Below are positions 1,683-59,027 of a DNA stretch of 64,000 bases, piece after piece. The number at the start of each line of letters is the position of its first letter. Within the stretch, counting starts at the first letter, position 1. Position numbers and translations under genes: made by a program. This stretch comes from Escherichia virus TH57: sequence record MT446422.1, one strand, 5' to 3'. The notes under the pieces were generated by a model. That model had not been told where the DNA came from. It made no database searches and saw only the letters and a program-made list of their open reading frames with translations.

Positions 1683-1712
1683 AAGGTCTGCCTTCGGGTG
1701 GACCTTTTTTCA
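1683..1712 (+). terminator. rho-independent terminator-like hairpin with T-run
   Basis: GC hairpin with TTCG core followed by TTTTTT. Confidence 0.5.
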
Positions 1713-1720
1713 TTTAGGGG

Positions 1721-1778
1721 GTTTACATCCTCATCAAAAGGGTGTACTATTATCCCATCAACTACTGAGGAGAACACA
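1721..1778 (+). promoter_or_regulatory. early promoter cassette, CATCAACTACTGA leader type
   Basis: -35 GTTTAC, 18-bp spacer, -10 TACTAT, conserved leader TATCCCATCAACTACTGAGGAG, then ATG. Confidence 0.55.
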
Positions 1779-1982
1779 ATGAGAATTAAAAATATCAAGA
1801 TTGATGCAGTTAATACTGGTGATGAGGTTGTTATCTATCTTAATGATTATGCAATCTTTATGGACAGTGCCACTGATGAAGAAATGGTTGAACTCTTACA
1901 GAAAGCTCCATTTGAACTGTGTGAAGAAGATGCTACCCATCTTTCATCAGCAATTTTCTCATTATCATATGTGGTGGAATAA
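1779..1982 (+). CDS. hypothetical protein
   Basis: 67-aa ORF from ATG directly after the conserved leader with GAGGAG SD. Confidence 0.5.
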   Translation: MRIKNIKIDAVNTGDEVVIYLNDYAIFMDSATDEEMVELLQKAPFELCEEDATHLSSAIFSLSYVVE

Positions 1983-2218
1983 TGAAACTTACAAATACCA
2001 TGGTTTCATTGGAATATGAAACCAATAATCATATTCTTGAAATTAAGATATTTGATGACGGAAGCATATTTGCTGATTACCGCGGATATAGAATTCGCCT
2101 GGAAAAGGAACAGCTTAAAGATGTTGAGCTTTTTAAAGAAACATTAAAAAGTTGTGGGTGTAAACTGAAAAATACTCAAGTCCAAGAATTAATTTCTACC
2201 ATCAACAAATACTGGTGA
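1982..2218 (+). CDS. hypothetical protein
   Basis: 78-aa ORF, start overlaps preceding stop. Confidence 0.5.
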   Translation: MKLTNTMVSLEYETNNHILEIKIFDDGSIFADYRGYRIRLEKEQLKDVELFKETLKSCGCKLKNTQVQELISTINKYW

Positions 2219-2222
2219 TATT

Positions 2223-2405
2223 ATGTTAACTACTGAACAAATTGAAAAAATTATTAAACTCGCCTGGCATATTGAAAATGCATCTAATGACCTGGCAGTG
2301 GAATTATGTGAAGGCTATTCATATTCTGGAATAGAACAGTGTAAGCGTGATTTGAATAGTTCTAAAGCTAATTTGGTTGAATATCTGAATGGGTTGAAAG
2401 CATAA
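2223..2405 (+). CDS. hypothetical protein
   Basis: 60-aa ORF in operon tiling. Confidence 0.45.
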   Translation: MLTTEQIEKIIKLAWHIENASNDLAVELCEGYSYSGIEQCKRDLNSSKANLVEYLNGLKA

Positions 2406-2662
2406 TGGCTGTTGGATTTGCAAAAGATGGCGCTGAACAGTTAGAGATGGAAGCGGTTGTACAAGCCGCTATCACCCATGCGAGAGCACAGGTTGCAGTT
2501 GAAAGGGAGTCTGCTGAATTCTGTTTTGACTGCGACGAAAAAATTCCTGAAGCGCGGAGACAAGCGATTAAGGGTGTGATATATTGTGTTGGTTGTCAAT
2601 CAATGCATGATGAAATTTTTAAACGTGAGCCACGAAACTGTTGGCACAGGAGCATGAGATGA
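2405..2662 (+). CDS. DksA/TraR-family C4 zinc-finger protein
   Basis: 85 aa; C-F-D-C ... C-V-G-C with intervening IPEARRQA fits the DksA/TraR C4 signature. Confidence 0.6.
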   Translation: MAVGFAKDGAEQLEMEAVVQAAITHARAQVAVERESAEFCFDCDEKIPEARRQAIKGVIYCVGCQSMHDEIFKREPRNCWHRSMR

Positions 2663-2753
2663 TTTACTATCTTGAACCTTGGGCTTGGTTAATAATGGCT
2701 GTAGGGCCTGTTTTAATTGGTTTATTCTTTTCATGGTTAGCGAGGAAACTGTA

Positions 2754-2969
2754 ATGTTATATGACCCTAGTGGTAATTCTGAAAATGGTGTGATTGTTCT
2801 GGAGCCTGAGCATCCAGTTGGTGACGTATACCGCCCGGTTGAAGTGTGCGAATGTAATTTTGTTAAAGGTAATACTGGTGGTATTTCCATTGAGCAAGAT
2901 GATGATGTTATTTACCTGGATGCAAGCCAAGTAGAAGCGCTTTATAGTATTTTAAAACACAACCGGTGA
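2754..2969 (+). CDS. hypothetical protein
   Basis: 71 aa from ATG with GAGGAA SD; track ORF 2679 begins at an upstream TTG. Confidence 0.45.
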   Translation: MLYDPSGNSENGVIVLEPEHPVGDVYRPVEVCECNFVKGNTGGISIEQDDDVIYLDASQVEALYSILKHNR

Positions 2970-3167
2970 TTTATGAAAACTAAAGAAAAGCATTTAAAGC
3001 TTGAAGAGCTTATCGAGGCCTTATGCAGGTACAGTTGCTAGATTCGAAACAGCATTTTGTCACCAATACTCGGTTGATGATTGTACTAGGCTTTCTAAAG
3101 AAGAAGATAATGCCCTTAAAGAATTGCTAAATTTTATTAAACAAAATGTGAAATGAGGAAATAGAAA

Positions 3168-5203: not shown

Positions 5204-5229
5204 AAGGACCCTTCGGGGTCCTTTTTTTA
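5204..5229 (+). terminator. rho-independent terminator
   Basis: GGACCC-TTCG-GGGTCC hairpin followed by TTTTTTT. Confidence 0.75.
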
Positions 5230-5242
5230 TTTTAAAAAGTAG

Positions 5243-5311
5243 TGTACGACCAGATGGTTATGAGGCATAATGATTCCATACTGAGTTACCAAATAAAAAC
5301 TGGAGAATAAA
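5243..5311 (+). promoter_or_regulatory. early promoter cassette, CCATACTGAGTTACC leader type
   Basis: AAAAAGTAGTGTAC -35 region, 17-bp spacer, CATAAT, conserved leader GATTCCATACTGAGTTACCAAA..CTGGAGAATAAA ATG. Confidence 0.6.
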
Positions 5312-5518
5312 ATGTTAGAATTAATCAAAGCTGCTGGTGAAAAAGGTCTGATGGTTAACACTCGTGACCCTGAACAACGTCAAGCATTTGGTGAGTTAAA
5401 AGCCAAAGGTCTGGTTAAAGCATCCCTTGGTATTGGCAATGCTTTGCGTGTGACTTTGACCCCTGCAGGTAAAGCAATGTTCTTCCCTAAACCATTACCA
5501 AAACGTCGTCGCAAGTGA
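5312..5518 (+). CDS. hypothetical small basic protein
   Basis: 68 aa, C-terminal KRRRK, directly after promoter cassette. Confidence 0.5.
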   Translation: MLELIKAAGEKGLMVNTRDPEQRQAFGELKAKGLVKASLGIGNALRVTLTPAGKAMFFPKPLPKRRRK

Positions 5519-5524
5519 GGAATT

Positions 5525-5827
5525 ATGAAAAAGTATGAAATTGACATGATTGATGCATGTCTTAAATCTGCTGACCATTTTAAGTTGAAAATGCACAAGT
5601 TAAGAGGAATGGTCAAAACTCCAGAAGAGAAGAAACGTTATGCTCTGAAGGAGAAATGTAAAGCTCTTATCATGATGGATAAGTTGCAAATAGTCGCCGC
5701 AGAAGCTCACAGGACACGTAAAGCTGAGGCCCTTAGTGTTTATATGGCAGAACAGCTACAGCGCGCACAGCAAGCCGTTAAGAGCGCGTGGTTCAGTGGT
5801 GAAAATACTGAAAGAACTTTTAATTAA
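5525..5827 (+). CDS. hypothetical protein
   Basis: 100-aa ORF with GAGG SD. Confidence 0.5.
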   Translation: MKKYEIDMIDACLKSADHFKLKMHKLRGMVKTPEEKKRYALKEKCKALIMMDKLQIVAAEAHRTRKAEALSVYMAEQLQRAQQAVKSAWFSGENTERTFN

Positions 5828-5829
5828 AT

Positions 5830-5896
5830 GTGTACATAGTATGGGGATAGCCGTATAATGTTCCCATACTGAGTTACCAAATAACTGGAGAATAAA
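5830..5896 (+). promoter_or_regulatory. early promoter cassette, CCATACTGAGTTACC leader type
   Basis: GTGTAC, 18 bp, TATAAT, then TTCCCATACTGAGTTACCAAATAACTGGAGAATAAA ATG. Confidence 0.6.
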
Positions 5897-6421
5897 ATGG
5901 AAGCCAAATCAATCTTTAATCTGATTAATTACAATAATGGTAATTTTAAATCAGAAGCACAAAGTAAGTTCTTTAATGATGTTGCTTGTGTGGGTGAGAT
6001 TACAGTATCAGGTGGTCAGACTTATAAAAACGCCTGGAACTGGATTGTGACTGTTGATTCAGTTGGTATTGTTGATGTATATAAAAACACCAATAAAAAT
6101 CGCTCCTTGTTCTGGTCAAGAGAGACTAATGCTGAGTATCAGGCAACAAGAGCAAAGAAAAATATGCCTACTGAATCTGATGTACAGAACATCAAATCAG
6201 ATATCCAATATTATGATGGTCTGATTGCTGAACAACAAGCGGTGCTTGATAAGTTCAATGAAATCAAAGCATGTAAAGAGATTCCTGAATTCATGCGGGA
6301 ATCGGTTAATGAACAATACAATCTCACTTCAGAGCGTATTGAAACCTATACCAAACAAAGAGCAGAGCGCCAGGTACTCCTTCAGAAGTTTGAAGAGCGT
6401 TTAAAGACGGTTCACGCATAA
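5897..6421 (+). CDS. hypothetical protein
   Basis: 174-aa ORF after promoter cassette. Confidence 0.55.
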   Translation: MEAKSIFNLINYNNGNFKSEAQSKFFNDVACVGEITVSGGQTYKNAWNWIVTVDSVGIVDVYKNTNKNRSLFWSRETNAEYQATRAKKNMPTESDVQNIKSDIQYYDGLIAEQQAVLDKFNEIKACKEIPEFMRESVNEQYNLTSERIETYTKQRAERQVLLQKFEERLKTVHA

Positions 6422-7551: not shown

Positions 7552-8439
7552 ATGAACATTAAAACACGTAAAGAATATTCTCGATTTGAACAGCGTGAAG
7601 GTCGTGCGACTCGTCTTATCGCGATGAATTCTCTGGTTAACTTTGGCAAAATTAAATCAGGTTCTGCCACCCAGGGGTATGGACAACGTATTGTAAGAAT
7701 TAACTCTCTGAATGATTACTGCCGCCGCCCGGCGTTTTTGTTTGGTGCCACAGTTCGTAAGAGCATCAAGGAAATCCTGGCTGCTGGGCTTCGTATTCGT
7801 AAAGCTCCGGTTAACATCAAGAACTATAATTTCAATTCTAGTAACTTGATTATCAATATCAAGAATGATGGTGTGCAGATTAAGTTCAAGCCAACTACTA
7901 AAGGCGATGTTGCCCTTTGTGATACCTTTAAAGAGGTTATGGGTATTGCTCTGTTTTATATGCGTCATGCTGTTGAAGCATACACGTTTGAAGAAGATAC
8001 AAATTATATCCATCAAACAGAAAAATTCCTTAAAACTATAACCATTGATATTAAATTAACTAAAGAATATCTTTTGTCTTATGCTCCTTATCAAGAGAAA
8101 AATGAACCAGAAGAGAAAAAGGAATCAGAAATGGAACGTATCCCTACTGCATCATATGGCCCAGCATTTGCAGGTCAGTATAAAACACAACCTATTTCAC
8201 CACCGGACGTTAAAAATATGTACAAATGGAACGTCCAGCCATCCAGCTCTCTTGGAATCTTTAACCCATCAATGAAACCTATTGAGAGCCATCATGCTGA
8301 TGCTATCCAGGAATCAGTCAACCGCTTAAACGGTCTGATTGAAGATGAGAAAAAGGGTATTCAGGACGTCCTGAATCGCATCAAGAACATGGAAAAACAA
8401 CGCAATAAATTGCAAGCTGCAATCAAAGCATTAAAATAA
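7552..8439 (+). CDS. hypothetical protein with C-terminal coiled-coil
   Basis: 296 aa from in-frame ATG just after upstream stop; C-terminal heptad-like tail. Confidence 0.5.
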   Translation: MNIKTRKEYSRFEQREGRATRLIAMNSLVNFGKIKSGSATQGYGQRIVRINSLNDYCRRPAFLFGATVRKSIKEILAAGLRIRKAPVNIKNYNFNSSNLIINIKNDGVQIKFKPTTKGDVALCDTFKEVMGIALFYMRHAVEAYTFEEDTNYIHQTEKFLKTITIDIKLTKEYLLSYAPYQEKNEPEEKKESEMERIPTASYGPAFAGQYKTQPISPPDVKNMYKWNVQPSSSLGIFNPSMKPIESHHADAIQESVNRLNGLIEDEKKGIQDVLNRIKNMEKQRNKLQAAIKALK

Positions 8440-8440
8440 T

Positions 8441-8470
8441 GTTTACTTCCAAGGATGGAGGGAGTATAAT
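8441..8470 (+). promoter_or_regulatory. early sigma70-type promoter
   Basis: GTTTAC, 18 bp, TATAAT. Confidence 0.5.
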
Positions 8471-8496
8471 GAATTCCTACTTTTGAGGAGAACACT

Positions 8497-9489
8497 ATGA
8501 CACGTAATGAATATATCCGGGCCTTTAACACCACTATCGATGCAAAAGTAAAACCATTAATAGGTGAATCGGCTATCCTTTCGATTATCAATTTCTGGTT
8601 AAATCAGATTGACGCATCGATTGTTGCATCCGGTCGTTTTAAGAAAGACATCATGACTATTGCGAGTCGTGCTGGTAATGATGATATCAAGAAAACTTTT
8701 AAAGGTTCCCGAGTCCTGGCATACCTGGTTAATAAAGACCTTCTTAATAAGTTTGGTGTTGAATCCAGACGTGGTAAAGGTACAATTGGGTATCATTGGT
8801 TTGGTGATGTTGAAAAATACTACCTTGATACGCAAGGCTATACTGTTTCTGAATTCGCAAATTGTTGGGCTCGTGAATTCAGAGATAACAAAATGTCTAT
8901 CATCAAATCAGCGACAAAAATGATGGGTGGTGATTTTCGCACTATCTCCCATTTGGCTGAGCACATGATAAATGTTAAAGATTCTGGTGAAAACCAGGTA
9001 ATTATTGCAGTTAAGTATGAATTCTTTACGCCAGTGGCTACCCCAGAAAATGTCAAAAAGTATCTTGATGTTGCATGTGTTCTTACTCATCAGCTGCAGT
9101 GTGCCCTTAACTATATGCGTACTGTTGAAAAAATTAAAGTAGACCCTATCACCAGTACTCATGGTTGGAAGGGTTATAAAATTGTGGTAACATTACGCAA
9201 AGTTAAATGTGCAAAGCAACCAACTGTTGCAGAAATCCATAAAAAGAAAAGTGAGGAAATTATGAATGCACCGCAAGAAGTTACCACCCTTGAAGACCTG
9301 ATTGATAATCTGAATAATGAACCAGTGAAACAAAAAGCGCCTGAAATTGTTGCCCTGGAAACAGCGTATAATGAAGCTCTTGTTATTAATAAAAAGGCAA
9401 CTGAAGATTATACAAAAGCCAAGCGACTTTGGGAAGAATCAACCAATCGTCTGGATAAACTGGAACAGGCTCTGGAGCTGCTGAAATGA
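8497..9489 (+). CDS. hypothetical protein with C-terminal coiled-coil
   Basis: 330-aa ORF, GAGGAG SD; C-terminal heptad-like tail. Confidence 0.55.
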   Translation: MTRNEYIRAFNTTIDAKVKPLIGESAILSIINFWLNQIDASIVASGRFKKDIMTIASRAGNDDIKKTFKGSRVLAYLVNKDLLNKFGVESRRGKGTIGYHWFGDVEKYYLDTQGYTVSEFANCWAREFRDNKMSIIKSATKMMGGDFRTISHLAEHMINVKDSGENQVIIAVKYEFFTPVATPENVKKYLDVACVLTHQLQCALNYMRTVEKIKVDPITSTHGWKGYKIVVTLRKVKCAKQPTVAEIHKKKSEEIMNAPQEVTTLEDLIDNLNNEPVKQKAPEIVALETAYNEALVINKKATEDYTKAKRLWEESTNRLDKLEQALELLK

Positions 9490-15255: not shown

Positions 15256-15553
15256 GATTGAAATTTATGGTATCCCCGAAGAAGTCGGTCGATGCCCTGG
15301 TTGTATGCACGTAAGGAGCCTTCTGGGCTCCTTAAACCTTCCTTATACATTCTATTCAGTCCTTAACAAACAAGGCTCTGAAATCGCTTATGACAGGCCT
15401 TTAATCATGTCTTTGGCTAAGCGTGCTGGATATCCTACCCTTAACATTCGTTACCCAGTGATTTTTGTCAATGATGAAAAAATGACAAATATTCCTGCCT
15501 TTAAAACAAAACTGATATCCCTGGGGTACGACCAGGACTTAATTGAAGATTAA
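15236..15553 (+). CDS. glutaredoxin-like protein (nrdH-like)
   Basis: 105 aa from GTG with AAGGAG SD; CPGC dithiol motif; position matches T4 nrdH. Confidence 0.5.
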   Translation: MGQNSTKIEIYGIPEEVGRCPGCMHVRSLLGSLNLPYTFYSVLNKQGSEIAYDRPLIMSLAKRAGYPTLNIRYPVIFVNDEKMTNIPAFKTKLISLGYDQDLIED

Positions 15554-15620
15554 AAAGGGGTGTACAAGCCCCTTTGAACGGTGTATCATTATCCCATCAA
15601 CTACTGATGAGGAAAACAAA
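15554..15620 (+). promoter_or_regulatory. early promoter cassette with stem-loop, CATCAACTACTGA leader type
   Basis: AAAGGGG/CCCCTTT hairpin enclosing GTGTAC, then TATCAT and ATCCCATCAACTACTGATGAGGAAAACAAA ATG. Confidence 0.55.
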
Positions 15621-15803
15621 ATGGTTATTGAAGATAAAGAAATTAAACTTGACCATTATTATTCTGTAAATGGTTATCCTATACAAGTAACCAAAGTGAC
15701 TGACCAAGATGTATGGTATCGTCCTTTGAAATGGCCAGACGCTCCGTTGATGGTGTGCGACCGTAGCTTGTTCAATACAGTTGCGAAAGGACCTAAATTA
15801 TGA
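15621..15803 (+). CDS. hypothetical protein
   Basis: 60 aa from ATG right after conserved leader. Confidence 0.5.
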   Translation: MVIEDKEIKLDHYYSVNGYPIQVTKVTDQDVWYRPLKWPDAPLMVCDRSLFNTVAKGPKL

Positions 15804-16489: not shown

Positions 16490-16687
16490 ATGAACCCTGA
16501 ATCTAAATTATCACAGCGAATTGCTGAAGCTCGTCGCCAGTTTTTTGAAAATATGATAGCTCAAGGTATCGATGACGAAGTTTTTCTAAACTGGTTTTGG
16601 AATCACAAGTATTCAAGTTGTTCAGGAGCGATATTCATATCAGCCGCAATGATGTATGAAGGCTGGAAAGCGGCTAAAGCGCAATAA
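16490..16687 (+). CDS. hypothetical protein
   Basis: 65-aa ORF. Confidence 0.45.
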   Translation: MNPESKLSQRIAEARRQFFENMIAQGIDDEVFLNWFWNHKYSSCSGAIFISAAMMYEGWKAAKAQ

Positions 16688-16694
16688 AAACCAA

Positions 16695-16759
16695 CGGGGT
16701 CATGGTATAATGACCCTAGGATAATAAAATTTTAATTTAATGAGACTGAGGAATATATC
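16695..16759 (+). promoter_or_regulatory. early promoter with inverted repeat flanking -10
   Basis: GGGTCAT-GGTATAAT-GACCC. Confidence 0.45.
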
Positions 16760-17086
16760 ATGACTGCATCTATCACTAACATCATCGCTAATTTCGCATT
16801 TACTAAAGTTAACACTCTGATGAAATCTGGTTTTGTTACTCCTGAGATTCTGGACCAGTGGGAAGGCGATGTACAGAAACTGATTATTGCAGAAGGTCAG
16901 ACAATGGGTAAAGCGCGTATTCGTGAAAGCCTTGTCCAGTATATCCTGAATGAATTTGATGTAGTAGCGTTTGGTTTACCGCTTCTGCGTGAAAACAAAG
17001 AAGTTTCTGATAAAGCTATCAAGCGTATGAAGTCCCAACGCAAGAAGGGGTTTGTTGACCTGAAAATTGTTAAGGGTGCAAAATGA
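16760..17086 (+). CDS. hypothetical protein
   Basis: 108-aa ORF with GAGG SD. Confidence 0.5.
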   Translation: MTASITNIIANFAFTKVNTLMKSGFVTPEILDQWEGDVQKLIIAEGQTMGKARIRESLVQYILNEFDVVAFGLPLLRENKEVSDKAIKRMKSQRKKGFVDLKIVKGAK

Positions 17087-34120: not shown

Positions 34121-34178
34121 GTGTACAACAAAGGGATAATGCTGTATATTATCCCTATCAACTACTGAGGAGATTGAA
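34121..34178 (+). promoter_or_regulatory. early promoter cassette with inverted repeat, CATCAACTACTGA leader type
   Basis: GTGTAC; AGGGATAAT...ATTATCCCT inverted repeat around -10; TATCAACTACTGAGGAG leader. Confidence 0.55.
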
Positions 34179-40006: not shown

Positions 40007-40236
40007 ACTGGTTAACAAATATCCCCACATCGGCACTGGATATCGACCGTAAACATGCTCATAAGGAAATTGAGCAACAAAAAATTAATCGTTTACAAAG
40101 GCTTAAGACTGAATCCGAGACAATTAAAGTCAAACGCCCGACAGAATCGAAAAGTTCTTACTCATCATATCAATCTCCGATTGGCATGGCCGTAGACATT
40201 GCAGTCTTTGGCACCCCACTTGGAGTATTTAAGTAG
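40003..40236 (+). CDS. hypothetical protein
   Basis: 77 aa from in-frame ATG; contains SSYSSY. Confidence 0.45.
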   Translation: MNWLTNIPTSALDIDRKHAHKEIEQQKINRLQRLKTESETIKVKRPTESKSSYSSYQSPIGMAVDIAVFGTPLGVFK

Positions 40237-40292
40237 TTTACTTACTCCCCTCCTAATGACATAATGGTCTTTCTTACAACAGAGAGGCCATT

Positions 40293-40853: not shown

Positions 40854-40897
40854 GACACGTTAATATGTTCCTATCAACTACTGATGAGGATAATAAA
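40837..40897 (+). promoter_or_regulatory. early promoter cassette, CATCAACTACTGA leader type
   Basis: GTGTAC inside the upstream gene's 3' end, 18 bp, TAATAT, CTATCAACTACTGATGAGGA leader. Confidence 0.5.
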
Positions 40898-41512: not shown

Positions 41513-41572
41513 CCAAAGACCTTAGAACCATTATACACAGTAAAAATAAAAGCGTTAAAGGTGAAAAAGTAG

Positions 41573-41645
41573 TGTACATAAAAGATGAATAGTATATAAT
41601 GATTCCGTACTGAGTTATTCACGTCCGTAAGATGAGAAAAATATC
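41573..41645 (+). promoter_or_regulatory. early promoter cassette, CCATACTGAGTTA leader variant
   Basis: AAAAAGTAGTGTAC, TATAAT, GATTCCGTACTGAGTTATTC leader. Confidence 0.55.
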
Positions 41646-42392
41646 ATGACTTTATCAAAAACCAAAACACTGAAAGTTAAACGTCGTCTGGAACACACTC
41701 AAGCTTCTGCTAAACGTCGTGGTAAGGACTTTAACCTGGATTTCAATTACCTGGTTAACATTCTTGACCAAAAAGTTTGTGCTTATTCTGGTGAAGCATT
41801 TAATAACTCTGTTGAAGACGAGAAGTTATCATTAGAACGTTTTAACAATGATATTGGTTATATCAAGGGTAATGTTATTCCTGTTAAAAAGAAATACAAC
41901 ACCATGCGTTCTGATTGGTCCCTGGATGAGCTTAAACAACGTCGTGATGATGTTGCTGTAAAAATTGCTCGCCCGTCCGCCAAGAAGATTGAAAAGTTAA
42001 ATCTGACTTCAGAGAAATGGGAACAGATTAAAAAGGCATATAACCATATAAAGAACATTCAGCACAAACGTGAGAATCGCGTTAAGCATTATGCTCAAAT
42101 GAGTAAATCAGAACAGTCCAAAGAAAACCAATTAAAAATGGTTGCTTTGAAGGCTCGCATTGATGGTTCCCGTGTTGCGGAAGGTCATGAGCTTACTAAA
42201 TTGAATGTTTTGCTCAAAGGCAATGACTGGAAAGTTACCAAGAAATTAACTGATGCTGAAACGCTTTTTGATTGCTATGATAAAATCATTCAAGGTCTTG
42301 AGCGTTTTGAGAAGATTGGTTTTATTGGTAAATTAAAACTGAAACGTGGTTTGCCTTTGAACGCGTCAATTTTTAAACTGATTAGAGGTTAA
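41646..42392 (+). CDS. srd: Srd-like protein (positional)
   Basis: 248 aa basic helical protein; position next to dda.1 and dda; size matches T4 Srd. Confidence 0.5.
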   Translation: MTLSKTKTLKVKRRLEHTQASAKRRGKDFNLDFNYLVNILDQKVCAYSGEAFNNSVEDEKLSLERFNNDIGYIKGNVIPVKKKYNTMRSDWSLDELKQRRDDVAVKIARPSAKKIEKLNLTSEKWEQIKKAYNHIKNIQHKRENRVKHYAQMSKSEQSKENQLKMVALKARIDGSRVAEGHELTKLNVLLKGNDWKVTKKLTDAETLFDCYDKIIQGLERFEKIGFIGKLKLKRGLPLNASIFKLIRG

Positions 42393-44285: not shown

Positions 44286-44966
44286 ATTGATGCTATTATT
44301 GACTTTGAAACTCTAGGAAACGGCTCGAAGGGAGCCGTTATTGACCTGGCTCTGATTACATTCGAATCTGACCCTGCTATTGTGGAATCATTCGAAACTC
44401 TGGTTAATCGCGGCAAACGTATTAAGTTCAGCCTCGAATACCAAAAAGGTAAGCGGTTGTTCGACACAACAACCATGGGTTGGTGGAAAAAACAATCACC
44501 AGAAGCTCGTGTTAACCTGACTCCTTCTGCGCATGATGTTGATACTCTGACCGGTATCCAACAGGCGATTGACTATCTGAATGGCAATGGAATTAACAAA
44601 TACGAAAGCCTTATGTGGTGCCGTGGAATGTCTTTTGACTTCCCGTTGTTTGTCGACCTTATCCGCGACCTACAGCGCAATGAGGGGATTCCTGAGCGTG
44701 AATTGAATACCTACGGTCTGGAGCCGGTTGTATTCTGGAATCAGCGAGATATCAGGACAGCCATCGAAGCCTTATCACTCGTCCGTAAGATGTGTGAAAC
44801 CCCATTACCGAAAGGGACTTTAGATGGATTTGTGGCGCACGATTCGGTACATGACTGCGCGAAAGATATTTTGATGTTGAAGTACGCCCAACGCTATGCT
44901 CTTGGTTTGGATGAAGTTCCTTCCGAAGAAGATGCAGACCCGTTATCTTTACCGAAAAAACGATAA
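44283..44966 (+). CDS. dexA: exonuclease A DexA
   Basis: 227 aa; DFET exonuclease motif; strong match to recalled T4 DexA. Confidence 0.9.
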   Translation: MIDAIIDFETLGNGSKGAVIDLALITFESDPAIVESFETLVNRGKRIKFSLEYQKGKRLFDTTTMGWWKKQSPEARVNLTPSAHDVDTLTGIQQAIDYLNGNGINKYESLMWCRGMSFDFPLFVDLIRDLQRNEGIPERELNTYGLEPVVFWNQRDIRTAIEALSLVRKMCETPLPKGTLDGFVAHDSVHDCAKDILMLKYAQRYALGLDEVPSEEDADPLSLPKKR

Positions 44967-44973
44967 AAAGTAG

Positions 44974-45033
44974 TGTACAAGGCCAATAGAAAGAGACATA
45001 ATCATCTCATCAACTACTGATGAGGATAACAAA
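44974..45033 (+). promoter_or_regulatory. early promoter cassette, CATCAACTACTGA leader type
   Basis: AAAAAGTAGTGTAC, CATAAT, CATCTCATCAACTACTGATGAGGA. Confidence 0.55.
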
Positions 45034-45291
45034 ATGATTACTTCTTTTGAAATTGGCCAACAATATGAAATGTCTGCTCTTCAAGCTGCTGAAGCAGGTC
45101 TGACTAAAGCGTTTGAATGTGCATTTGCAAATATTCGTGGTAAAATCTTTACTGTCAATAAAATTGCGGTATATGATAAAGAAACAGACATGAACAAAGG
45201 CATCTACCTGAACGTGTCAAATGCAAAAGGCCGTCGTGAAATTATGGTTGTACAACCTAATCAACTGGCGATGTTCAATAAGGTTGCATAA
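45034..45291 (+). CDS. hypothetical protein
   Basis: 85-aa ORF after promoter cassette. Confidence 0.5.
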   Translation: MITSFEIGQQYEMSALQAAEAGLTKAFECAFANIRGKIFTVNKIAVYDKETDMNKGIYLNVSNAKGRREIMVVQPNQLAMFNKVA

Positions 45292-46046
45292 TGAAACCAG
45301 AATTTATTGACTTTGATGTTGTAAGCACTTATGTGTGTCCAATTAAACCATTAAAACTTGAGAAACAAAATATGACTATTGAAATTAACAAAACTTATCA
45401 ACTGATTGAACCTATTATTCAAAACGCAGCTATGATTTCTGGGTATAATACTTTGACTGATGCTTTAGGTGAAGGTGAATTTGTTGTTGAAACTTTTGTA
45501 AAAAGTAACTGGTTTGATAAAGCATATATTTTGCATGCCCGTCGTCTGGATACTAATGAAGTGGAAAAAATTATGGTTTATGAAGCTGAGATTGAACTTT
45601 TCAAAGAAGTTGAAGAAACTCCTATCAAAGTTGGTAAAACATATCAGCTTATTGAAGATGGTAGTCAGTTTGATAATGCTATCGCACTGCATGCAGGCTG
45701 GCGTGTGCTGAAAGGTATTTTTGGCTTTGCTCCATTTACCGTTGAAACAGTTAAGTACCACAATCACTTAAATATCTTTGAATTTACTGCAATTAATGAA
45801 TCAGGTGACAATCTTGAAGCTATCCTTTATCCGCGTGAATCTGTACTGTTGGAAGAAGTTAACGAACTGGGTGACCCTATTGACTTGTTATGTAAACCAG
45901 TTCAAATCAAACGCCCATTTAACAGTTCCATTTGTGGTTGGGTAACAGACCAGTGGATTGAAGATGGGGTTGAACTCCTGAACGTCGTCCATGCTGGTGA
46001 ATTTACTGTTGTCCCACGTTCCATGGTTGTTCAAATTTTTAATTAA
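45291..46046 (+). CDS. MotB-like paralog with internal duplication
   Basis: 251 aa; two KTYQLIE-containing segments; C-terminal region similar to the next ORF. Confidence 0.5.
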   Translation: MKPEFIDFDVVSTYVCPIKPLKLEKQNMTIEINKTYQLIEPIIQNAAMISGYNTLTDALGEGEFVVETFVKSNWFDKAYILHARRLDTNEVEKIMVYEAEIELFKEVEETPIKVGKTYQLIEDGSQFDNAIALHAGWRVLKGIFGFAPFTVETVKYHNHLNIFEFTAINESGDNLEAILYPRESVLLEEVNELGDPIDLLCKPVQIKRPFNSSICGWVTDQWIEDGVELLNVVHAGEFTVVPRSMVVQIFN

Positions 46047-46052
46047 GTTTAG

Positions 46053-46123
46053 TGTACAAACTCTTGGGGTCGGAGTATAATGACCCCACTGGAGAATAAA
46101 CTTATTAACCAAGAGAGAAAATT
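46053..46123 (+). promoter_or_regulatory. early promoter cassette with inverted repeat around -10
   Basis: GTGTAC; GGGGTC-GGAGTATAAT-GACCCC; CACTGGAGAATAAA leader. Confidence 0.55.
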
Positions 46124-46615
46124 ATGAAAGTTGAAGCTGGTGATATTGTACGTGTTTCTAAAGAATCTCGTTCCAAAGCTGCTGGTCGTTTTGTTGAGGT
46201 TGTGGGTCTTCGCACTAATTTAGCAGGTGGAATTAAAGAAGTTAAAGTGCGCATCATTCCTAAAAATGGTCAGACTGAAACTCAATTGGCTTATGTGCAT
46301 CCTAAATTCCTGGAATCAACCGAATTTACTGGGTACATCGCTCCTGTGGCCGAAGAAGTTGAAACTATTGACCAGTCTCATGTTGGGGTTGATTTTAAAT
46401 GGAAATTGGGCAAAGGTGTCTTTTTTGTTTCACCTAAACCGTTTGAATATAATTGTCAGTATGGTCCGACTTATGAAACCACTAGCATGTCTGGTTATAT
46501 CACAGACCAATGGGTTGAAGAAGGTGTCAAACTGTATAATATCGTGTTCCTTGGAACCTTTAAGGTTGTTCCTGAGAGCTTTATTGTCGAGTATGCTGAT
46601 ATTCATTTTGCCTAA
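46124..46615 (+). CDS. motB: MotB-like protein (positional)
   Basis: 163 aa; position between dexA and 39; size as T4 MotB. Confidence 0.5.
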   Translation: MKVEAGDIVRVSKESRSKAAGRFVEVVGLRTNLAGGIKEVKVRIIPKNGQTETQLAYVHPKFLESTEFTGYIAPVAEEVETIDQSHVGVDFKWKLGKGVFFVSPKPFEYNCQYGPTYETTSMSGYITDQWVEEGVKLYNIVFLGTFKVVPESFIVEYADIHFA

Positions 46616-54669: not shown

Positions 54670-54945
54670 ATGGACCACGTTACTACTCACAACATTAAAC
54701 AAATTCTTATTCAAGCACTCAAAAACAACAACATCAATTTTCCAACCCATGAAATTTTTGATGTGGTATTCAACGAAGTCCAGGGTCAAGTTGCATATTA
54801 TGACGTTATCGTTTATCTTTCAGAATTTGAAGTCTACCACCTGACTGAAATCGCTTTCTATCTCTATCGTGGAACAGCAGATTTTACTGGTGTCGTGAAT
54901 GCAGTTGGCGCATATAAAGAAGTTAAAGAACAAATGCACAATTAA
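54670..54945 (+). CDS. hypothetical protein
   Basis: 91 aa from in-frame ATG. Confidence 0.45.
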   Translation: MDHVTTHNIKQILIQALKNNNINFPTHEIFDVVFNEVQGQVAYYDVIVYLSEFEVYHLTEIAFYLYRGTADFTGVVNAVGAYKEVKEQMHN

Positions 54946-54955
54946 TTAAAAAGTA

Positions 54956-55019
54956 GTGTACATCAGTATGGAGTCTATGTATAATGATTCCATACTGAGT
55001 TACCAAACTGGAGAATAAA
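54956..55019 (+). promoter_or_regulatory. early promoter cassette, CCATACTGAGTTACC leader type
   Basis: AAAAAGTAGTGTAC, 18 bp, TATAAT, GATTCCATACTGAGTTACCAAACTGGAGAATAAA ATG; AGTATGGA...TCCATACT inverted repeat around -10. Confidence 0.6.
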
Positions 55020-55175
55020 ATGAAACCTGCTCAATATGCAATGACTTTATACCTTGAAGTTAATGGCGATATTACTGAATTTTTTAAATTAATGCAACAG
55101 CGTGGAAAAAGTTTTGCAGTTACTGAGCGTCAATTTTACGCTTGCCGTAAAAATACATACAATCGTTATGCATGA
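55020..55175 (+). CDS. hypothetical small protein
   Basis: 51 aa directly after conserved leader; not in track. Confidence 0.4.
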   Translation: MKPAQYAMTLYLEVNGDITEFFKLMQQRGKSFAVTERQFYACRKNTYNRYA

Positions 55176-55452: not shown

Positions 55453-55542
55453 GCAGCAAAACCTGGTGTCTTATCTGGATGCTGTGTATCCCAGTAATTT
55501 GCGTTTGTTTTAGTTTATTATTAATGAAACTTGCATAAAAGA

Positions 55543-55597
55543 GTGTACATCTCCGGTGGTTGTAGTATAATGAACCTATCAACTACTGGAGATGATT
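55543..55597 (+). promoter_or_regulatory. early promoter cassette, CATCAACTACTG leader type
   Basis: GTGTAC, 17 bp, TATAAT, GAACCTATCAACTACTGGAGATGATT ATG. Confidence 0.55.
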
Positions 55598-56188: not shown

Positions 56189-56530
56189 ATGTCTAAATTA
56201 TTTTTTGGTAATGCCAATGTTATGTTCTTTAAGAACCTTAGTCTCCAAGATGCAGCTTTATGTAATCAAGGGCAGATTCCAGGGTTACATTTAAAAACTG
56301 TAATGAGCACAGATTTTGTTTTTGTTCAAGACCCTGATACAGGTTTTTACAGATTTATTAAATTCCGTATGTGCATGGACCCCGACTATCGCAATGCTTA
56401 CTATGTAAGTTATGAAAATGTTATTAAAGAATTACGTAATACCTATGGATATGCTTTGATAAACCTGAATAAGGTGTATAACGCTACTTGTTACACCCCC
56501 GAATTTATTTTAGAACAACTTCAAAAATAG
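56189..56530 (+). CDS. hypothetical protein
   Basis: 113-aa ORF with GAGGAAA SD. Confidence 0.5.
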   Translation: MSKLFFGNANVMFFKNLSLQDAALCNQGQIPGLHLKTVMSTDFVFVQDPDTGFYRFIKFRMCMDPDYRNAYYVSYENVIKELRNTYGYALINLNKVYNATCYTPEFILEQLQK

Positions 56531-56603
56531 TGTACAAACTCATGGGGTCAGAGTATAATGACCCCACTGGAGCACAAAACTTTAACTTACTGAGGAAATT
56601 AAT
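56530..56603 (+). promoter_or_regulatory. early promoter cassette with inverted repeat around -10
   Basis: GTGTAC; GGGGTCA-GAGTATAAT-GACCCC; CACTGGAGCACAAAAC leader. Confidence 0.55.
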
Positions 56604-57053
56604 ATGACTACTTACATGACCCGTCGTGACGTACTGAATGCTGGCGCTACCACTGTTGCTCACATCCATAATGGCAATTATGTTGTAGGGCGTCCAACTA
56701 AAGAAGCTATCACCCAACCAGGTTTTTATTTCGTGGTTAAAGGTGAAGGCGAATCACGTATTGTTGCTGCACGTTTTTACGTTGGTAACCAACGTTCACA
56801 ACAAGGGTTTGACACTGTATTAAGTCACATCCGCAAACAGCGTTCACAACTGTCGCGCACAATGGCGAACAATGGTGTTATCTATGAAGTCCTGTTTGTT
56901 CCAGTTTCTAAAATGAAACCTTTGACAACTGGTTATGGTAAAGGTCAAATTGCGATGGCGTTCACACGCTCACATAGTTCTGATTGTCAGACCCTTTCAG
57001 AAATGAATCGCATGCTTGCTGATAACTTTAAATTCATTTTGCAGAGCTATTAA
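56604..57053 (+). CDS. ndd: nucleoid disruption protein Ndd
   Basis: 149 aa; [14 protein letters not shown]...[12 protein letters not shown]...[11 protein letters not shown] matches recalled T4 Ndd. Confidence 0.9.
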
Positions 57054-57054
57054 T

Positions 57055-57135
57055 ATGAGTAATTTCCATAATGAACATGTGATGCAATGGCATCGTCATA
57101 ATCTGAAATTAACCGGCGTCTTTGGGCGCCCTTGA
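57055..57135 (+). CDS. stp: Stp peptide (PrrC anticodon-nuclease activator)
   Basis: 26 aa [26 protein letters not shown], near-identical to recalled T4 Stp; not in track. Confidence 0.8.
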
Positions 57136-57142
57136 GGAAAAT

Positions 57143-57298
57143 ATGAATAAATTTGTTTATAGTGTAGCTTTTTTCTGTTGGTCATTTGTATTTGTTGGAA
57201 CATTATTAACTGGAGAAACTTCAGTATTTTCACAGGCGATTGCTCAAGGTACCGTAGCGGTTTTATCACTATTTAAATTATTGGATAAAAATGATTAA
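57143..57298 (+). CDS. ac: Ac-like small membrane protein (positional)
   Basis: 51 aa, membrane; position between stp and 52; same length as T4 Ac; not in track. Confidence 0.5.
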   Translation: MNKFVYSVAFFCWSFVFVGTLLTGETSVFSQAIAQGTVAVLSLFKLLDKND

Positions 57299-57431
57299 GA
57301 AAATCTTGGGCTACTCATTAGCCCTTGCTACCTTATTGGTGGCGCTGTATTATGGAGTTGTATTTGCATTAGTGCAGGTTGTGCTTTTTATTTCTGATGC
57401 TATAATGGCAGTACATTCGTTAATCTGGTAA
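57291..57431 (+). CDS. hypothetical small membrane protein (52.1 position)
   Basis: 46 aa; not in track. Confidence 0.4.
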   Translation: MIKKILGYSLALATLLVALYYGVVFALVQVVLFISDAIMAVHSLIW

Positions 57432-57439
57432 GGTGATAT

Positions 57440-58819
57440 ATGTCTGACGTTTTAAGTATGATGTCCAAACAGTTCAGTGATTCCATGGGGTCCCTTAACC
57501 CACGCAGTCTAAAAGACATTATTGATGTGGAAGCATTGTCATATGCTATCTACACTGTGGAAGGTCGTGCCATCCCAAACATGATTGATGGTTTTAAACC
57601 AGTTCACAGATTTGTTATGGCGAGAGCATTAGACCTGGCTCGTGGCGATAAGAATAAATTCCATAAGGTTGCCTCCATTGCAGGTGGCGTAGCTGATTAT
57701 GGTTATCACCATGGCGAAGCATCAGCGGAAGAAGCAACTTCTGGTCTGGTCGCAACATATAAAAATGAATACCCCATGTTTGATGGGCAAGGCAACTTTG
57801 GTTCCAGAATGGTGCCAGAAGCATCATCAGCTCGTTATGTATTCGCAAGGGTTTCAAAGAACTTTTATAACTTGTTTAAGGATACAGAATATGCTCCGGT
57901 CCATCCTGATGAAGAACATAAGCCTCCTGCTTTTTATCTTCCTGTTATTCCTACTGTATTACTTAACGCCACTTCTGGGATTGCTGTTGGCTTCGCTACT
58001 GATATTCTTCCTCATTCGTTCCAGGACGTCAAGGAAGCTGTTAAAGCTATCGTGGAAGGTCGTGAGCCGGTTGCTCCGAAAGTAAAATATCCAGAATTCC
58101 GTGGTGAAGTTGTTGAGCTGGAAGAGCCTGGTAAGTATGAGCTTCATGGCACGTACAAAATGACTTCCAGGACTCAAATGGAAATTACTGAAATCCCGGT
58201 CCAATGGAACCTGGAAAAGTATACAAGTAAAATCCTGGACCCACTGGAAGAGAAAGGTTTTATCACCTGGAAAGATAACTGTGGCGAGCATGGTTTTGGG
58301 TTTAAGATTAAATTCCGTAAGGAATACAAGCTGGATGGCACTGAAGAAGAAAATCATGAGAAAATCATGAAAGACTTTGGTCTGATTGAGAAGCTCTCCC
58401 AGAACTTAACTGTACTTAATCACAAAGGCAAATTGGCTGAATACACCAACACGCTTGACCTGATTCGCGATTTCGTTGATGTCCGTAAGACTTATGTCCA
58501 AGTGCGAATTGACAGTAAGATTAAAGAAACTGAAGCCGCGTTTAAACTGGCCCGAGCAAAAGTCTTCTTTATTAAAGAAGTGATTGATGGTAAGGTTGTT
58601 ATCCAGGGGAAACCTCGTAAGAAGTTGATTGAGGAGCTCCAGGCGAGTGAAATATATGGCGATTATGCAGAGAAGTTAGTGGCGATGAACATCTACCATA
58701 TGACCTCTGATGAAGCCAAGAAGCTTGCAGACGAAGCAAAGGCTAAGAAAGCCGAGCATGAGTACTGGAAGACAACTGATGTTAAAACTGAATACCTTAA
58801 TGATTTGGAGGCTCTATGA
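57440..58819 (+). CDS. 52: DNA topoisomerase II medium subunit gp52 (GyrA-like)
   Basis: 459 aa; matches recalled T4 gp52. Confidence 0.9.
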   Translation: MSDVLSMMSKQFSDSMGSLNPRSLKDIIDVEALSYAIYTVEGRAIPNMIDGFKPVHRFVMARALDLARGDKNKFHKVASIAGGVADYGYHHGEASAEEATSGLVATYKNEYPMFDGQGNFGSRMVPEASSARYVFARVSKNFYNLFKDTEYAPVHPDEEHKPPAFYLPVIPTVLLNATSGIAVGFATDILPHSFQDVKEAVKAIVEGREPVAPKVKYPEFRGEVVELEEPGKYELHGTYKMTSRTQMEITEIPVQWNLEKYTSKILDPLEEKGFITWKDNCGEHGFGFKIKFRKEYKLDGTEEENHEKIMKDFGLIEKLSQNLTVLNHKGKLAEYTNTLDLIRDFVDVRKTYVQVRIDSKIKETEAAFKLARAKVFFIKEVIDGKVVIQGKPRKKLIEELQASEIYGDYAEKLVAMNIYHMTSDEAKKLADEAKAKKAEHEYWKTTDVKTEYLNDLEAL

Positions 58820-58914
58820 GTTTTGGAGTTGAGTTTGCATTGCTTTGTATTTTCGCGGCAATCGCGGGTGTGATTGTTGGTATGTTTATTGGTAATAAGA
58901 TAGATAAAGACTAG
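58816..58914 (+). CDS. hypothetical small membrane peptide
   Basis: 32 aa, ATGA overlap with gene 52 stop; not in track. Confidence 0.3.
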   Translation: MSFGVEFALLCIFAAIAGVIVGMFIGNKIDKD

Positions 58915-58936
58915 GGCCCTTCGGGGTCCTTTTTTA
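58913..58936 (+). terminator. rho-independent terminator
   Basis: GGGCCC-TTCG-GGGTCC (one mismatch) followed by TTTTTT. Confidence 0.65.
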
Positions 58937-58948
58937 TTTTAAAAAGTA

Positions 58949-59027
58949 GTGTACAAGTCCCTTGACCCGATGCATAATGATTCCATACTGAGTTACACAC
59001 TGAATCATAAAAATTTTGGAGAATAAA
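58949..59027 (+). promoter_or_regulatory. early promoter cassette, CCATACTGAGTTAC leader type
   Basis: AAAAAGTAGTGTAC, CATAAT, GATTCCATACTGAGTTACAC...GGAGAATAAA ATG. Confidence 0.55.

Follow-up and report, generated by a model that had tools for sequence, protein, structure and literature searches.

We analysed a window of 64,000 nucleotides from Escherichia virus TH57 (MT446422.1), a Gaprivervirus of the VR7/SP18/TH54 group with 92-98% nucleotide identity to VR7, VR25, SP18 and TH54. The window carries 19 promoter cassettes, all on the + strand. A first-pass annotation had reported at least 16, and all 16 lay where it placed them to within 1 nt; we found three more, with -10 elements at 8465, 40260 and 62022. 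It had described the genes behind the cassettes as mostly small unknown ORFs, but most units precede named T4 early genes, the orthologues of motB, ndd, modA, modB, srd, asiA, imm, sp, nrdC.4, nrdC.8, 55.2, 55.6 and mobD.5. Window units correspond directly, by position and orthology, to the T4 early promoters of motB, srd, sp and motB.2.

The units consist, in order, of an A-tract, a GTGTAC or GTTTAC -35, a spacer of 17-18 bp and a TATAAT-like -10. This is the make-up proposed from the first reading, except that the site at 16706 has no -35. The -35 can also be read as TGTACA/TTTACA (GTKTAC), the A-rich tract is UP-like, the discriminator is C-rich and the spacer sequence is free. G is the commonest base directly 5' of the -10 (14 of the 19 units), and inspection of the 19 units by eye revealed no apparent TGn extended -10. 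Likeness between units does not stop at the -10 but takes in the discriminator as well as 16-30 nt of the leader. Transcription would start at the conserved A 7 nt past the -10, so that type A transcripts are predicted to begin AUACUGAGUUACCAAA..CUGGAGAAUAAAAUG and type B transcripts AUCAACUACUGA(G/U)GAGGA..AUG.

Type A units stand before a 68-aa ORF resembling VR7ORF098c (5204..5314), nrdC.8 (5816..5899), the 51-aa ORF at 55020-55175 (54942..55022) and a 72-aa ORF upstream of motA (58913..59030). The first and last carry TTCG terminators (5204-5223, with the -10 at 5266; 58913-58930, with the -10 at 58973). In the other two a hairpin encloses the -10, one of 12-13 bp around 5854 (-19.5 kcal/mol, z -3.7) and one of 13 bp around 54980 (-21.6 kcal/mol, z -5.3). 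The RegB-optimum SD GGAGAATAAAA of the first unit lies at 5302-5312, and the same sequence recurs in the others at 5887-5897, 55010-55020 and 59018-59028. A type A variant before srd (41558..41648, -10 at 41595) is orthologous to the T4 srd early promoter.

Type B units precede the mobD.5 orthologue (1681..1781; TTCG-loop terminator hairpin at 1681-1708, -16.7 kcal/mol, z -3.9; -35 at 1721-1726, -10 at 1745-1750, ATG at 1779), gp55.6 (15546..15623; -10 at 15584, the -35 in the loop of a terminator-like hairpin at 15554-15575), sp or spackle (34107..34181; the stem AGGGATAA/TTATCCCT encloses the -10 at 34145), modA (40823..40900; SD region GGATAATAAAA), an 85-aa ORF at the T4 motB.2 position (44959..45036; SD region GGATAACAAAA) and ndd.4 (55529..55594; -10 at 55566). 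A further type B unit lies downstream of gene 41 (33178..33250), its -35, GCTTAC, in the loop of a hairpin that resembles an intrinsic terminator and has a T-run behind it, and GGAGAATAAAA at 33238-33248. The type B-like unit before imm (29177..29260; -10 at 29215) has a hairpin within its spacer. In the motB cassette (46038..46126) the hairpin GGGGTC-GGAGTATAAT-GACCCC encloses the -10 at 46076 (-17.4 kcal/mol, z -3.7), with GGAGAATAAAC 3 nt further on. Its paralogue at ndd (56516..56606) repeats the GGGGTC/GACCCC hairpin, here around the -10 at 56554 (-17.0 kcal/mol, z -4.2), then GGAGCACAAAA. The degenerate cassette before gp55.2 (16682..16762), the one without a -35, retains a hairpin, GGGGTC..TATAAT..GACCCT, and a GGAUAAUAAAA site. 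The three added early promoters have different leaders: those before nrdC.4 (8427..8499) and modB (40222..40295) have GTTTAC, and that before asiA (61984..62079) lies beyond the range first annotated.

A generic sigma-70 scan of the window performed at chance (68 found, 64 expected), so the signal is a phage-specific motif rather than generic hexamers. The pattern G[TC][GT]TAC-N16-19-TAnnnT matched 26 times on the + strand, 18 of these directly 5' of an ORF start, and 3 times on the - strand. The two leader types are real. The motif CCATACTGAGTTACCAAA had 4 matches at up to 3 mismatches (3 exact) against 0.06 expected, and ATCCCATCAACTACTGA had 7 against 0.30, all on the + strand and at the places originally given. 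Nor is the likeness confined to the hexamers, as the block behind the -10, (G/T)AT(T/C)CC-A-T, has an information content equal to that of the -10 itself. To call the copies near-identical was nevertheless an overstatement: within type A, identity is 0.87 in the discriminator and 0.83 in the first 16 nt beyond it, but 0.27 in the spacer, where random sequence gives 0.26.

Orthologous leaders diverge by 1.6%, SD regions by 2.0%, the -35 by 1.5% and the -10 by 2.2%, whereas spacers diverge by 5.9% and third codon positions by 9.4%. Between genomes the leader changes as slowly as the two hexamers and at about one-sixth the rate of third codon positions, although homogenisation between copies, rather than selection, could account for part of this. 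According to PMC1702504, the RegB site consensus is the 11-nt GGAGRAYARAA and the T4 optimum for RegB/S1 is GGAGAAUAAAA; the sites are single-stranded and usually coincide with an early-gene SD (see also PMC3014915). The type A SD module is exactly this optimum. The window has five exact copies against 0.38 expected, all five in cassette SDs with the A of the ATG as last base. In T4, RegB cutting is established for the motB leader, the model substrate, for the GGAU sites of 55.2 and motB.2 and, at a moderate level, for nrdC.8, and the window sites of motB, 55.2, motB.2 and nrdC.8 are orthologues of these. The regB gene lies outside the window; in VR7 and MN01 it is annotated just past the window's left end. 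The earlier suggestion of shared post-transcriptional control is supported by the five leaders that have this exact optimum and in which RegB cleavage is predicted. Such control would not be universal, as RegB is expected to act poorly on half of the leaders (for example those with GGAA SDs, or with C at position 9).

Hairpins are of more than one kind. Predicted true terminators, with a canonical hairpin and T-run, occur in five units, either upstream of the -35 or enclosing it. The TTCG-loop form, said to occur often, was found in only three (-10 at 1745, 5266 and 58973). The inverted repeats reported round the -10 of several copies were borne out: six units enclose the -10 in a hairpin. Unit hairpins have fold z-scores of -2.4 to -5.3, and each spacer pairs better with its own leader than with the leaders of other units (p 0.003-0.007). 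We compared 25 distinct -10 hairpin sequences, which came from at least four loci in several lineages of T4-like phages. All 150 of the 150 cells pair, four of the six pairs have changed on both sides, and the covariation score of 0.626 exceeds that of shuffles (0.25; none of 500 reached 0.626) and of slid controls (at most 0.19). There are eight different stems and one constant loop, and the only non-Watson-Crick cells are nine G·U, with no A·C. In TH54 the long stem at 54980 has a pair-breaking change. The RegB-type site, GGA(G/U) plus an A-rich stretch, lies 1-3 nt 3' of the hairpin and is invariant in all T4-like sequences recovered.

The arms covary strongly between T4-like genera and the only intermediates are G·U, which suggests that the -10 hairpin probably acts in read-through RNA. 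The promoter's own start is predicted to fall inside the 3' arm, and the hairpin could then form only in RNA reading through from the upstream gene. Once RegB has cut, it may mark and protect the 3' end newly formed on the upstream cistron; alternatively, it may attenuate the read-through. The -10 hairpins have no U-tract, being followed by ACUGGAG.., and so are not classical terminators.

The cassettes belong to an already known kind of element. PeSL (promoter-early stem-loop) cassettes are described in RB49/phi1 (PMC2839356) and in PST/T4 and nt-1/KVP40 (PMC4122927), and the PeSL anatomy first proposed for the window is largely right. An AT-rich tract, a sigma-70-type early promoter, an SD and an ATG follow in the same order; in 12 of the 19 units a stem-loop lies where these papers place it (upstream of the -35, across it, in the spacer or across the -10), the other seven having no convincing hairpin; and the units lie in an early, accessory-gene-rich part of the genome, with cassette-bounded gain, loss or swapping of ORFs at some loci. 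The -35 differs, being the T4-type GTGTAC/GTTTAC here and a near-perfect TTGACA in RB49 (PMC2839356). Two conserved leader families are not reported as a PeSL feature in the available portions of either paper, and the term 'leader' is absent from PMC2839356. Cassette junctions in this genus also have no indel enrichment; the promoter and terminator activity of the units is predicted, and mini-circles would be hypothetical. In T4 itself, early promoters are 'uber' UP/-35/TGn/-10 promoters (PMC2988021), with predicted counterparts in RB69, RB49, 44RR, RB43 and Aeh1 (PMC1524935). The window units have in common with them a -35 of the GTTTAC type, a TATAAT -10 and, at -40 to -44, an A-rich tract. 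The G at -33 and the C at -3 to -1 had been noted before in other T4-like genomes. They differ in having no apparent TGn and in a genus-specific (G/T)AT(T/C)CC discriminator and type A leader, for which blastn matches fell in about 33-44 records, nearly all Gaprivervirus. A promoter family with a RegB-type site 1-3 nt behind a covarying -10 hairpin does not appear in the available portions of PMC1702504 and PMC3014915. The T-even internal-protein (IP) loci also have repeated T4-type early promoter units, weak stem-loops and interchangeable small genes (Repoila et al. 1994, as cited in PMC2839356), but those units are limited to two loci, while the window units extend over about 60 kb before many unrelated early genes.

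It had been proposed that the cassettes drive modular shuffling. In its strongest form they would be mobile PeSL elements whose main significance is shuffling, recombination between copies excising, inserting or swapping promoter+ORF modules, possibly via mini-circles, and so explaining most gene-content differences in the early region. We think this possible but doubtful. Four hot-spot loci are clear cassette-bounded mosaics. Downstream of nrdC.11 (5198-5242, the unit with its -10 at 5266), SP18 and MN01 have an extra ORF between two cassettes, and the single window unit equals the upstream hairpin plus the downstream leader of that arrangement; its orthologue in SP18 and MN01 has the spacer of the 5854 paralogue. 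One to three tandem cassette+ORF modules follow gene 41, varying by genome. At sp, the A-tract is the exact point from which SP18, VR7 and MN01 are homologous to the window; the flank upstream of it is non-homologous in these three and the same as the window's in TH54. The ORF at 55020-55175, which among four relatives only MN01 has, is inserted exactly behind a type A leader. Mini-circles are also demonstrated for RB49 and phi1 (PMC2839356). Against this, breakpoints are not in excess at cassettes (4 of 16 cassette junctions and 43 of 114 other gene junctions in comparisons with the four relatives; Fisher p=0.90), and while a cassette was near 16 of the 64 pairwise indel events, the other 48 had none within 90 bp in either genome. 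Few of the sites that differ in gene content carry a cassette. The spacers of different copies match no better than random sequence, which means that the units were not recently copied whole, and the exact repeats that copies have in common, as seen in the printed sequences, span a short 15-24 nt (e.g. CCATACTGAGTTACCAAA, CTGGAGAATAAAATG). Another idea is that leader likeness is only a by-product of recent duplication or gene conversion among promoters, the leader having no function of its own. The swapping of cassette variants between paralogous positions and the near-identity of the motB and ndd units, spacer included, speak for such concerted evolution. Within type A, however, blocks 83-100% identical flank a spacer at the random level, which fits block-wise selection better than whole-unit copying. 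The slow divergence of the leader, the match of the SD module to an experimentally defined 11-nt RegB/S1 site and the conservation as far as T4 of the type B core ACTACTGAGGAG and of the motB, 55.2 and motB.2 sites make a by-product improbable.

The hairpins allow two further readings. As DNA, the -10 repeats could be a dimeric-repressor operator for early shut-off, or a cruciform or hairpin extruded to expose a single-stranded -10. In phage N4, early promoters do present single-stranded DNA in an extruded hairpin or cruciform. The window repeat is centred on the -10, and the shut-off mechanism of T4 early promoters is described as incompletely understood (PMC3014915). The arms covary rather than hold one sequence, which is evidence against a sequence-specific protein site. 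The nine non-Watson-Crick cells are all G·T on the sense strand, which in a duplex or cruciform would leave C·A mismatches on the other strand, and the repeat is present at only about 6 of the 19 promoters; a role as DNA thus seems very unlikely. A less remote reading, though still on the unlikely side, is the role proposed by the PeSL authors, in which all stem-loops, those at the -10 included, are plain terminators or attenuators insulating modules from upstream transcription, with no link to RegB. The stem-loops of RB49 and phi1 have such activity in several positions, including overlapping the -10 (PMC2839356), and the five canonical terminators of the window fit it. It does not fit the ACUGGAG.. 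found in place of a U-run behind the -10 hairpins, and plain termination leaves the invariant RegB-type site just downstream unexplained.

We therefore favour, as the probable reading, that the repeats are sigma-70-dependent immediate-early promoters of a T4-like Gaprivervirus fused to short conserved 5' leaders that are often RegB targets and, at some units, linked to the -10 hairpin. The support observed is the sequence anatomy, a constrained leader, a covarying hairpin and the orthology of units to T4 promoters and of sites to T4 RegB targets cut experimentally; from these we infer start sites, termination, RegB cleavage in phage TH57 and the role of the hairpin. The shared blocks may occasionally act as crossover points, at which promoter+ORF modules are added, removed or swapped. 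In type A, where the SD region and the A of the AUG together form the 11-nt optimal RegB/S1 site, the mRNAs are predicted to be translated at once; RegB would then cut them inside the SD and so inactivate them towards the close of the early period.

The repeated units of the window, each named here by the start of its -10, are predicted T4-type early promoters. They have the features of that class: a GTTTAC-like -35, an A-rich UP-like region, a TATAAT -10 and a site 5' of early genes. A scan for G[TC][GT]TAC, a gap of 16-19 bp and TAnnnT gave 26 matches on the + strand of the window and 3 on the - strand. Directly 5' of an ORF start lie 18 of the + strand matches, which comprise 15 of the 16 sites listed in the first-pass annotation and three more, with -10 at 8465, 40260 and 62022. 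The sixteenth listed site, unit 16706, has the -10 and no -35. In 18 of the 19 units the coding strand reads GTKTAC (GCTTAC in one)-N17/18-TAnnnT directly 5' of the ORF, and all 19 have at the 3' end a purine-rich, SD-like stretch and then the ATG of an ORF that is 35 codons long or more.

When the 19 units were aligned on the -10, information was found in the A-tract, the -35 and the -10, and it was equally high in the 8 nt 3' of the -10, (G/T)AT(T/C)CC-A-T. In the A-tract, 13-15 of the 19 units have A at each of four successive positions 4-7 nt 5' of the -35 (columns -31 to -28, anchored on the -10). We infer that transcription starts at the conserved A 7 nt 3' of the -10. The consensus of T4 early promoters also extends beyond the hexamers (PMC2988021), and a G at -33 and C at -3 to -1 have been described in other T4-like phages (PMC1524935). 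A generic TTGACA/TATAAT sigma-70 scan of the window found 68 sites where 64 were expected, which is chance level, so the signal is a phage-specific motif. MotA-dependent middle promoters were considered and dropped: the -35 region is GTKTAC, with no TGCTT MotA box.

Two conserved leader families, types A and B, lie between promoter and ATG, and their cores are far above chance in the window (type A, 4 matches against 0.06 expected; type B, 7 against 0.30). The cassettes of the first-pass annotation are thus real, and their similarity extends beyond generic hexamers, as the block after the -10 is as informative as the -10 itself. The T4 genome, scanned with the same expression, has matching promoters before motB, srd, sp and motB.2, and their leaders are recognisable as orthologues; the type B core ACTACTGAGGAG occurs in T4 too. 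By blastn the type A leader and the GATTCC discriminator are genus-specific: they occur in 44 and 33 phage records respectively, nearly all from Gaprivervirus, with 4-12 sites in each genome.

The description of the copies as near-identical was too strong. Within type A, identity is 1.00 in the -35, 0.90 in the -10, 0.87 in the discriminator and 0.83 in the next 16 nt, but only 0.27 in the spacer, against 0.26 for random 16-mers. Type B shows the same pattern. The units are mosaics in which conserved blocks surround a free spacer, and not recent copies of a single sequence, except that the motB/ndd pair (46076 and 56554) is similar along its entire length. Orthologous cassettes were compared in four relatives (TH54, VR7, SP18 and MN01). 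The third codon positions of the downstream ORFs had diverged most, by 9.4%, followed by the spacer (5.9%), the discriminator (4.7%) and the A-tract (4.0%); the least divergent parts were the -10 (2.2%), the SD region (2.0%), the leader (1.6%) and the -35 (1.5%). The leader is therefore as constrained as the promoter hexamers.

The Gaprivervirus phages VR7, VR25, VR20, SP18, TH54 and MN01 match segments of the window at 92-98% nucleotide identity, the numbering of VR7 running opposite to the + strand of the window. The early region runs in the order tk, nrdC, gene 49, nrdD/G, 55, 47-46, 45-44-62, regA, 43, imm, uvsX, 41, sp, 61, 56, soc, modA/B, srd, dda, dexA, motB, 39, rIIA, rIIB, denB, ndd, 52, motA, asiA, and past asiA the late genes t and 38 lie on the - strand. 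GC skew is positive almost throughout the window, as expected with a single direction of transcription. The first-pass annotation placed the units mostly before small ORFs of unknown function, which is overstated. They precede orthologues of the T4 early genes mobD.5, nrdC.8, nrdC.4, 55.6, 55.2, imm, sp, modB, modA, srd, motB, ndd.4, ndd and asiA, plus a few small ORFs.

PeSL (promoter-early stem-loop) cassettes are defined by an AT-rich tract, a sigma-70-like early promoter, a stem-loop, an SD and an ATG, the stem-loop lying 5' of the -35, over it, in the spacer, over the -10 or after it (PMC2839356, PMC4122927). In PMC2839356 their promoter and terminator/attenuator activity was assayed with reporters, and mini-circles formed by recombination between copies were detected by inverse PCR. 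Four of these five positions are found in the window; the position after the -10 is absent. A stem-loop is present in 12 of the 19 units, and no convincing hairpin was found in the other 7. TTCG-loop terminators lie 5' of the -35 in three (1681-1708, 5204-5223 and 58913-58930). Two hairpins hold the -35, GTGTAC or GCTTAC, in the loop of a GGGG..CCCC stem (15554-15575 and about 33185-33207); the second has a clear T-run after the stem, the first only a short TTT. At both, the same bases would terminate upstream transcription and start the next transcript. One hairpin lies in the spacer (unit 29215), and six stems enclose the -10 (units 5854, 16706, 34145, 46076, 54980 and 56554), with RNA folds of -9 to -21.6 kcal/mol and z mostly between -2 and -5.3. 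No part of the window matched an Rfam family at gathering threshold. As anatomy the PeSL identity holds, since the tract, promoter, SD and ATG are all present and the stem-loop, in those 12 units, is in a published position. The units are predicted to be the Gaprivervirus representatives of the already known T4-type early promoters, or PeSL-like cassettes, with RegB-targeted leaders. Another TTCG-loop terminator, GGGAACCTTCGGGTTCCCTTTTT, stands 5' of soc (38385-38420) with a TATAAT-like box after it; this is no early cassette.

PeSL cassettes had also been proposed to drive modular shuffling of accessory genes. We chained blastn alignments of the window against the four relatives and counted indel or replacement events of at least 40 bp, which gave 64 pairwise events at about 33 loci. 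Among these relatives no excess of breakpoints at cassettes was found: 4 of 16 cassette junctions carried one against 43 of 114 other gene junctions (Fisher p=0.90), and the cassette count becomes about 5 of 19 once three units whose starts were missed by the greedy gene call are added. Sixteen of the 64 events lie near a cassette. The other 48 have none within 90 bp in either genome, so most ORF-precise indels arise without cassettes; examples are 2969-3154, 12344-14744 (nrdD/G), 20925-21130, 53545-53575 and 59861-60040.

What stands of the proposal is four cassette-bounded loci. Downstream of nrdC.11, SP18 and MN01 have an extra ORF between two cassettes, where the window has a single unit made of the upstream hairpin and the downstream leader; the orthologue of this unit in SP18 and MN01 has the spacer of the 5854 paralogue. 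The region 3' of gene 41 holds one to three tandem modules of cassette and ORF, depending on the genome. At sp, SP18, VR7 and MN01 each differ 5' of the cassette while TH54 shares the flank of the window, and in those three homology begins at the A-tract. The 51-aa ORF at 55020-55175, directly 3' of a type A leader, is found among the four relatives only in MN01; TH54, VR7 and SP18 lack it, and there this leader drives the ORF that comes next. At least among the four relatives sampled, cassettes act as crossover points only occasionally and are not the main driver.

The anaerobic ribonucleotide reductase genes nrdD and nrdG (12345-14629) are present in the window, TH54 and SP18; VR7 and MN01 have about 124 bp in their place, and neither boundary has a cassette. 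MN01 carries a 773-bp insertion between genes 46 and 45.2 (24277-24993 of its entry, L006; window 22810-22856). The insertion holds a - strand ORF annotated only as a hypothetical protein, and it could be of the homing-endonuclease type. Annotated endonuclease insertions of VR7 lie at 10781-11127 (MobE-like) and 37815-38099 (segF).

According to Durand et al. (PMC1702504), the phage endoribonuclease RegB, acting with S1, targets an 11-nt single-stranded RNA, GGAGRAYARAA, with the T4 optimum GGAGAAUAAAA, usually in the translation initiation region of early genes. The type A SD module, CTGGAGAATAAAATG, includes this exact optimum. The degenerate consensus has five exact matches in the window against 0.38 expected, all of them GGAGAATAAAA and all in cassette SDs (5266, 5854, 33216, 54980 and 58973), their last base being the first of the ATG. 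No stable pairing of these five modules was apparent by eye. The motB leader, GGAGAATAAAC, matches 10 of the 11 consensus positions, and in several type B leaders GGAU precedes an A-rich run, AAUAAAA or AACAAAA.

The T4 orthologues of these leaders have recorded responses to RegB. In T4, where RegB-dependent cleavage in vivo falls between G and A, the motB leader is cut and serves as a standard substrate, the only sensitive GGAU sites are those of 55.2 and motB.2, nrdC.8 is moderately cleaved and the mobD.5 transcript is insensitive. The window orthologues of motB, 55.2, motB.2, nrdC.8 and mobD.5 are units 46076, 16706, 44997, 5854 and 1745, and the mobD.5 leader of the window has a disfavoured C at position 9. 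Both VR7 (54452-54910) and MN01 have an annotated regB gene slightly more than 2 kb 5' of tk, which corresponds to a position just past the left end of the window. For about half of the leaders, early mRNAs are predicted to be inactivated by RegB/S1; the GGAA leaders and those with C at position 9 (mobD.5, nrdC.4, 55.6) are predicted to escape cutting. The suggestion that identical leaders imply shared post-transcriptional control is thus well founded, and the control can be given a name.

Across the 19 units the spacer pairs better with its own leader than with those of the others (permutation p=0.0065 when only Watson-Crick pairs count, 0.0025 with G·U). At the motB promoter the stem is GGGACC..TATAAT..GGTCCC in T4, GGGGTC..GACCCC in the window and GGGGCC..GGTCCC in VR7. 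We searched IMG/VR for such promoters. A looser pattern, GTKTACAAACTC-N12-TATAAT, gave mostly unrelated contigs among the matches listed, and we used instead a tighter one in which only the start of the spacer, the first G in the 5' arm and GAGTATAAT were fixed, so that the 3' arm could vary freely. This gave 36 loci, T4-like except for two chance matches in unrelated DNA (L132 and L133), which were excluded from the covariation set. The stems found were GGGGTC/GACCCC, GGGGCC/GGTCCC, GGGACC/GGTCCY, GGGATC/GGTCCT, GGGAGC/GCTCCY, GGGAGC/GTTCCC, GAGGAC/GTCCTC, GAGAGC/GCTCTC and GAGAGA/TCTCTC; the variants occur at motB, ndd, 55.2 and other loci, always around the loop NGAGTATAAT. A third hairpin promoter of the motB/ndd type, GGGAGC..TATAAT..GTTCCC followed by GGATAATAAAA, stands before a gene in the ndd-denB region of SP18-like genomes (SP18 itself, L009, and an IMG/VR copy of a 171.5-kb Gaprivervirus, L127) and is absent from the window.

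The covariation set, which takes in the 55.2 units of the window and its relatives, has 25 distinct sequences. All 150 of its 150 cells are paired, and both sides change in 4 of the 6 pairs. The covariation score was 0.626 against 0.25±0.03 for shuffles (0/500 reaching it) and at most 0.19 for slid controls. Nine cells are not Watson-Crick, all of them G·U or U·G, in at least 6 sequence backgrounds, and none is A·C. The presence of G·U without A·C points to a sense-strand structure, most simply RNA, and speaks against a protein operator or a symmetrical cruciform. GGA(G/U) and an A/U-rich run follow 1-3 nt 3' of the stem in every T4-like sequence recovered. The covariation indicates selection on an RNA hairpin that has the -10 of the next promoter as its loop and lies beside a RegB site. 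The unit before gp55.2 (16682-16762) has lost its -35, with AAAACCAAC where other T4-like phages have GTTTACAAACTC, and retains the hairpin, the TATAAT loop and the site GGAUAAUAAAA, which suggests that the RNA module was kept there though the promoter decayed.

As the predicted start lies inside the 3' arm, the hairpin could form only in read-through RNA from the upstream gene. One live alternative, the role proposed by the PeSL authors, is that the -10 hairpins attenuate this read-through; the stems enclosing the -10 are without a U-run. Our own proposal is tentative and may well prove wrong: the -10 hairpin and the adjacent RegB site would form one processing module, conserved in several genera of the Tevenvirinae (at motB, ndd, 55.2 and other loci), that treats read-through and promoter-initiated RNA differently. 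In read-through RNA the hairpin would form and RegB would cut just 3' of the stem, so that the upstream cistron would keep a protective 3' hairpin and the downstream RNA would be left with a decay-prone 5' end. Promoter-initiated RNA, missing the 5' arm and starting almost at the RegB site, would quickly gain such an end. The 46056 fold also has an outer helix, in which the conserved CUCU of the spacer pairs with GGAG further 3' and which would mask the RegB site of read-through RNA. We do not regard this helix as general, since it cannot form in the GGAU variants and its 5' side is invariant.

The analysis gives a regulatory map of the immediate-early region for a phage genus used in therapy and biocontrol work. 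The map places 19 early promoters and their starts, both predicted, together with terminators and the leaders that RegB is likely to control. It also tests PeSL shuffling quantitatively in a new genus, where the idea holds at a few hot spots and is not the general cause of differences in gene content. Only the covarying -10 hairpin, with the RegB site next to it, goes beyond what we found described, and it is the part most worth pursuing. It is a compact overlap of DNA and RNA signals, directly testable in T4, where the orthologous motB leader is already a standard RegB substrate. If the proposal is true, the spacer and discriminator of a promoter would be shaped by the RNA structure of the upstream transcript.
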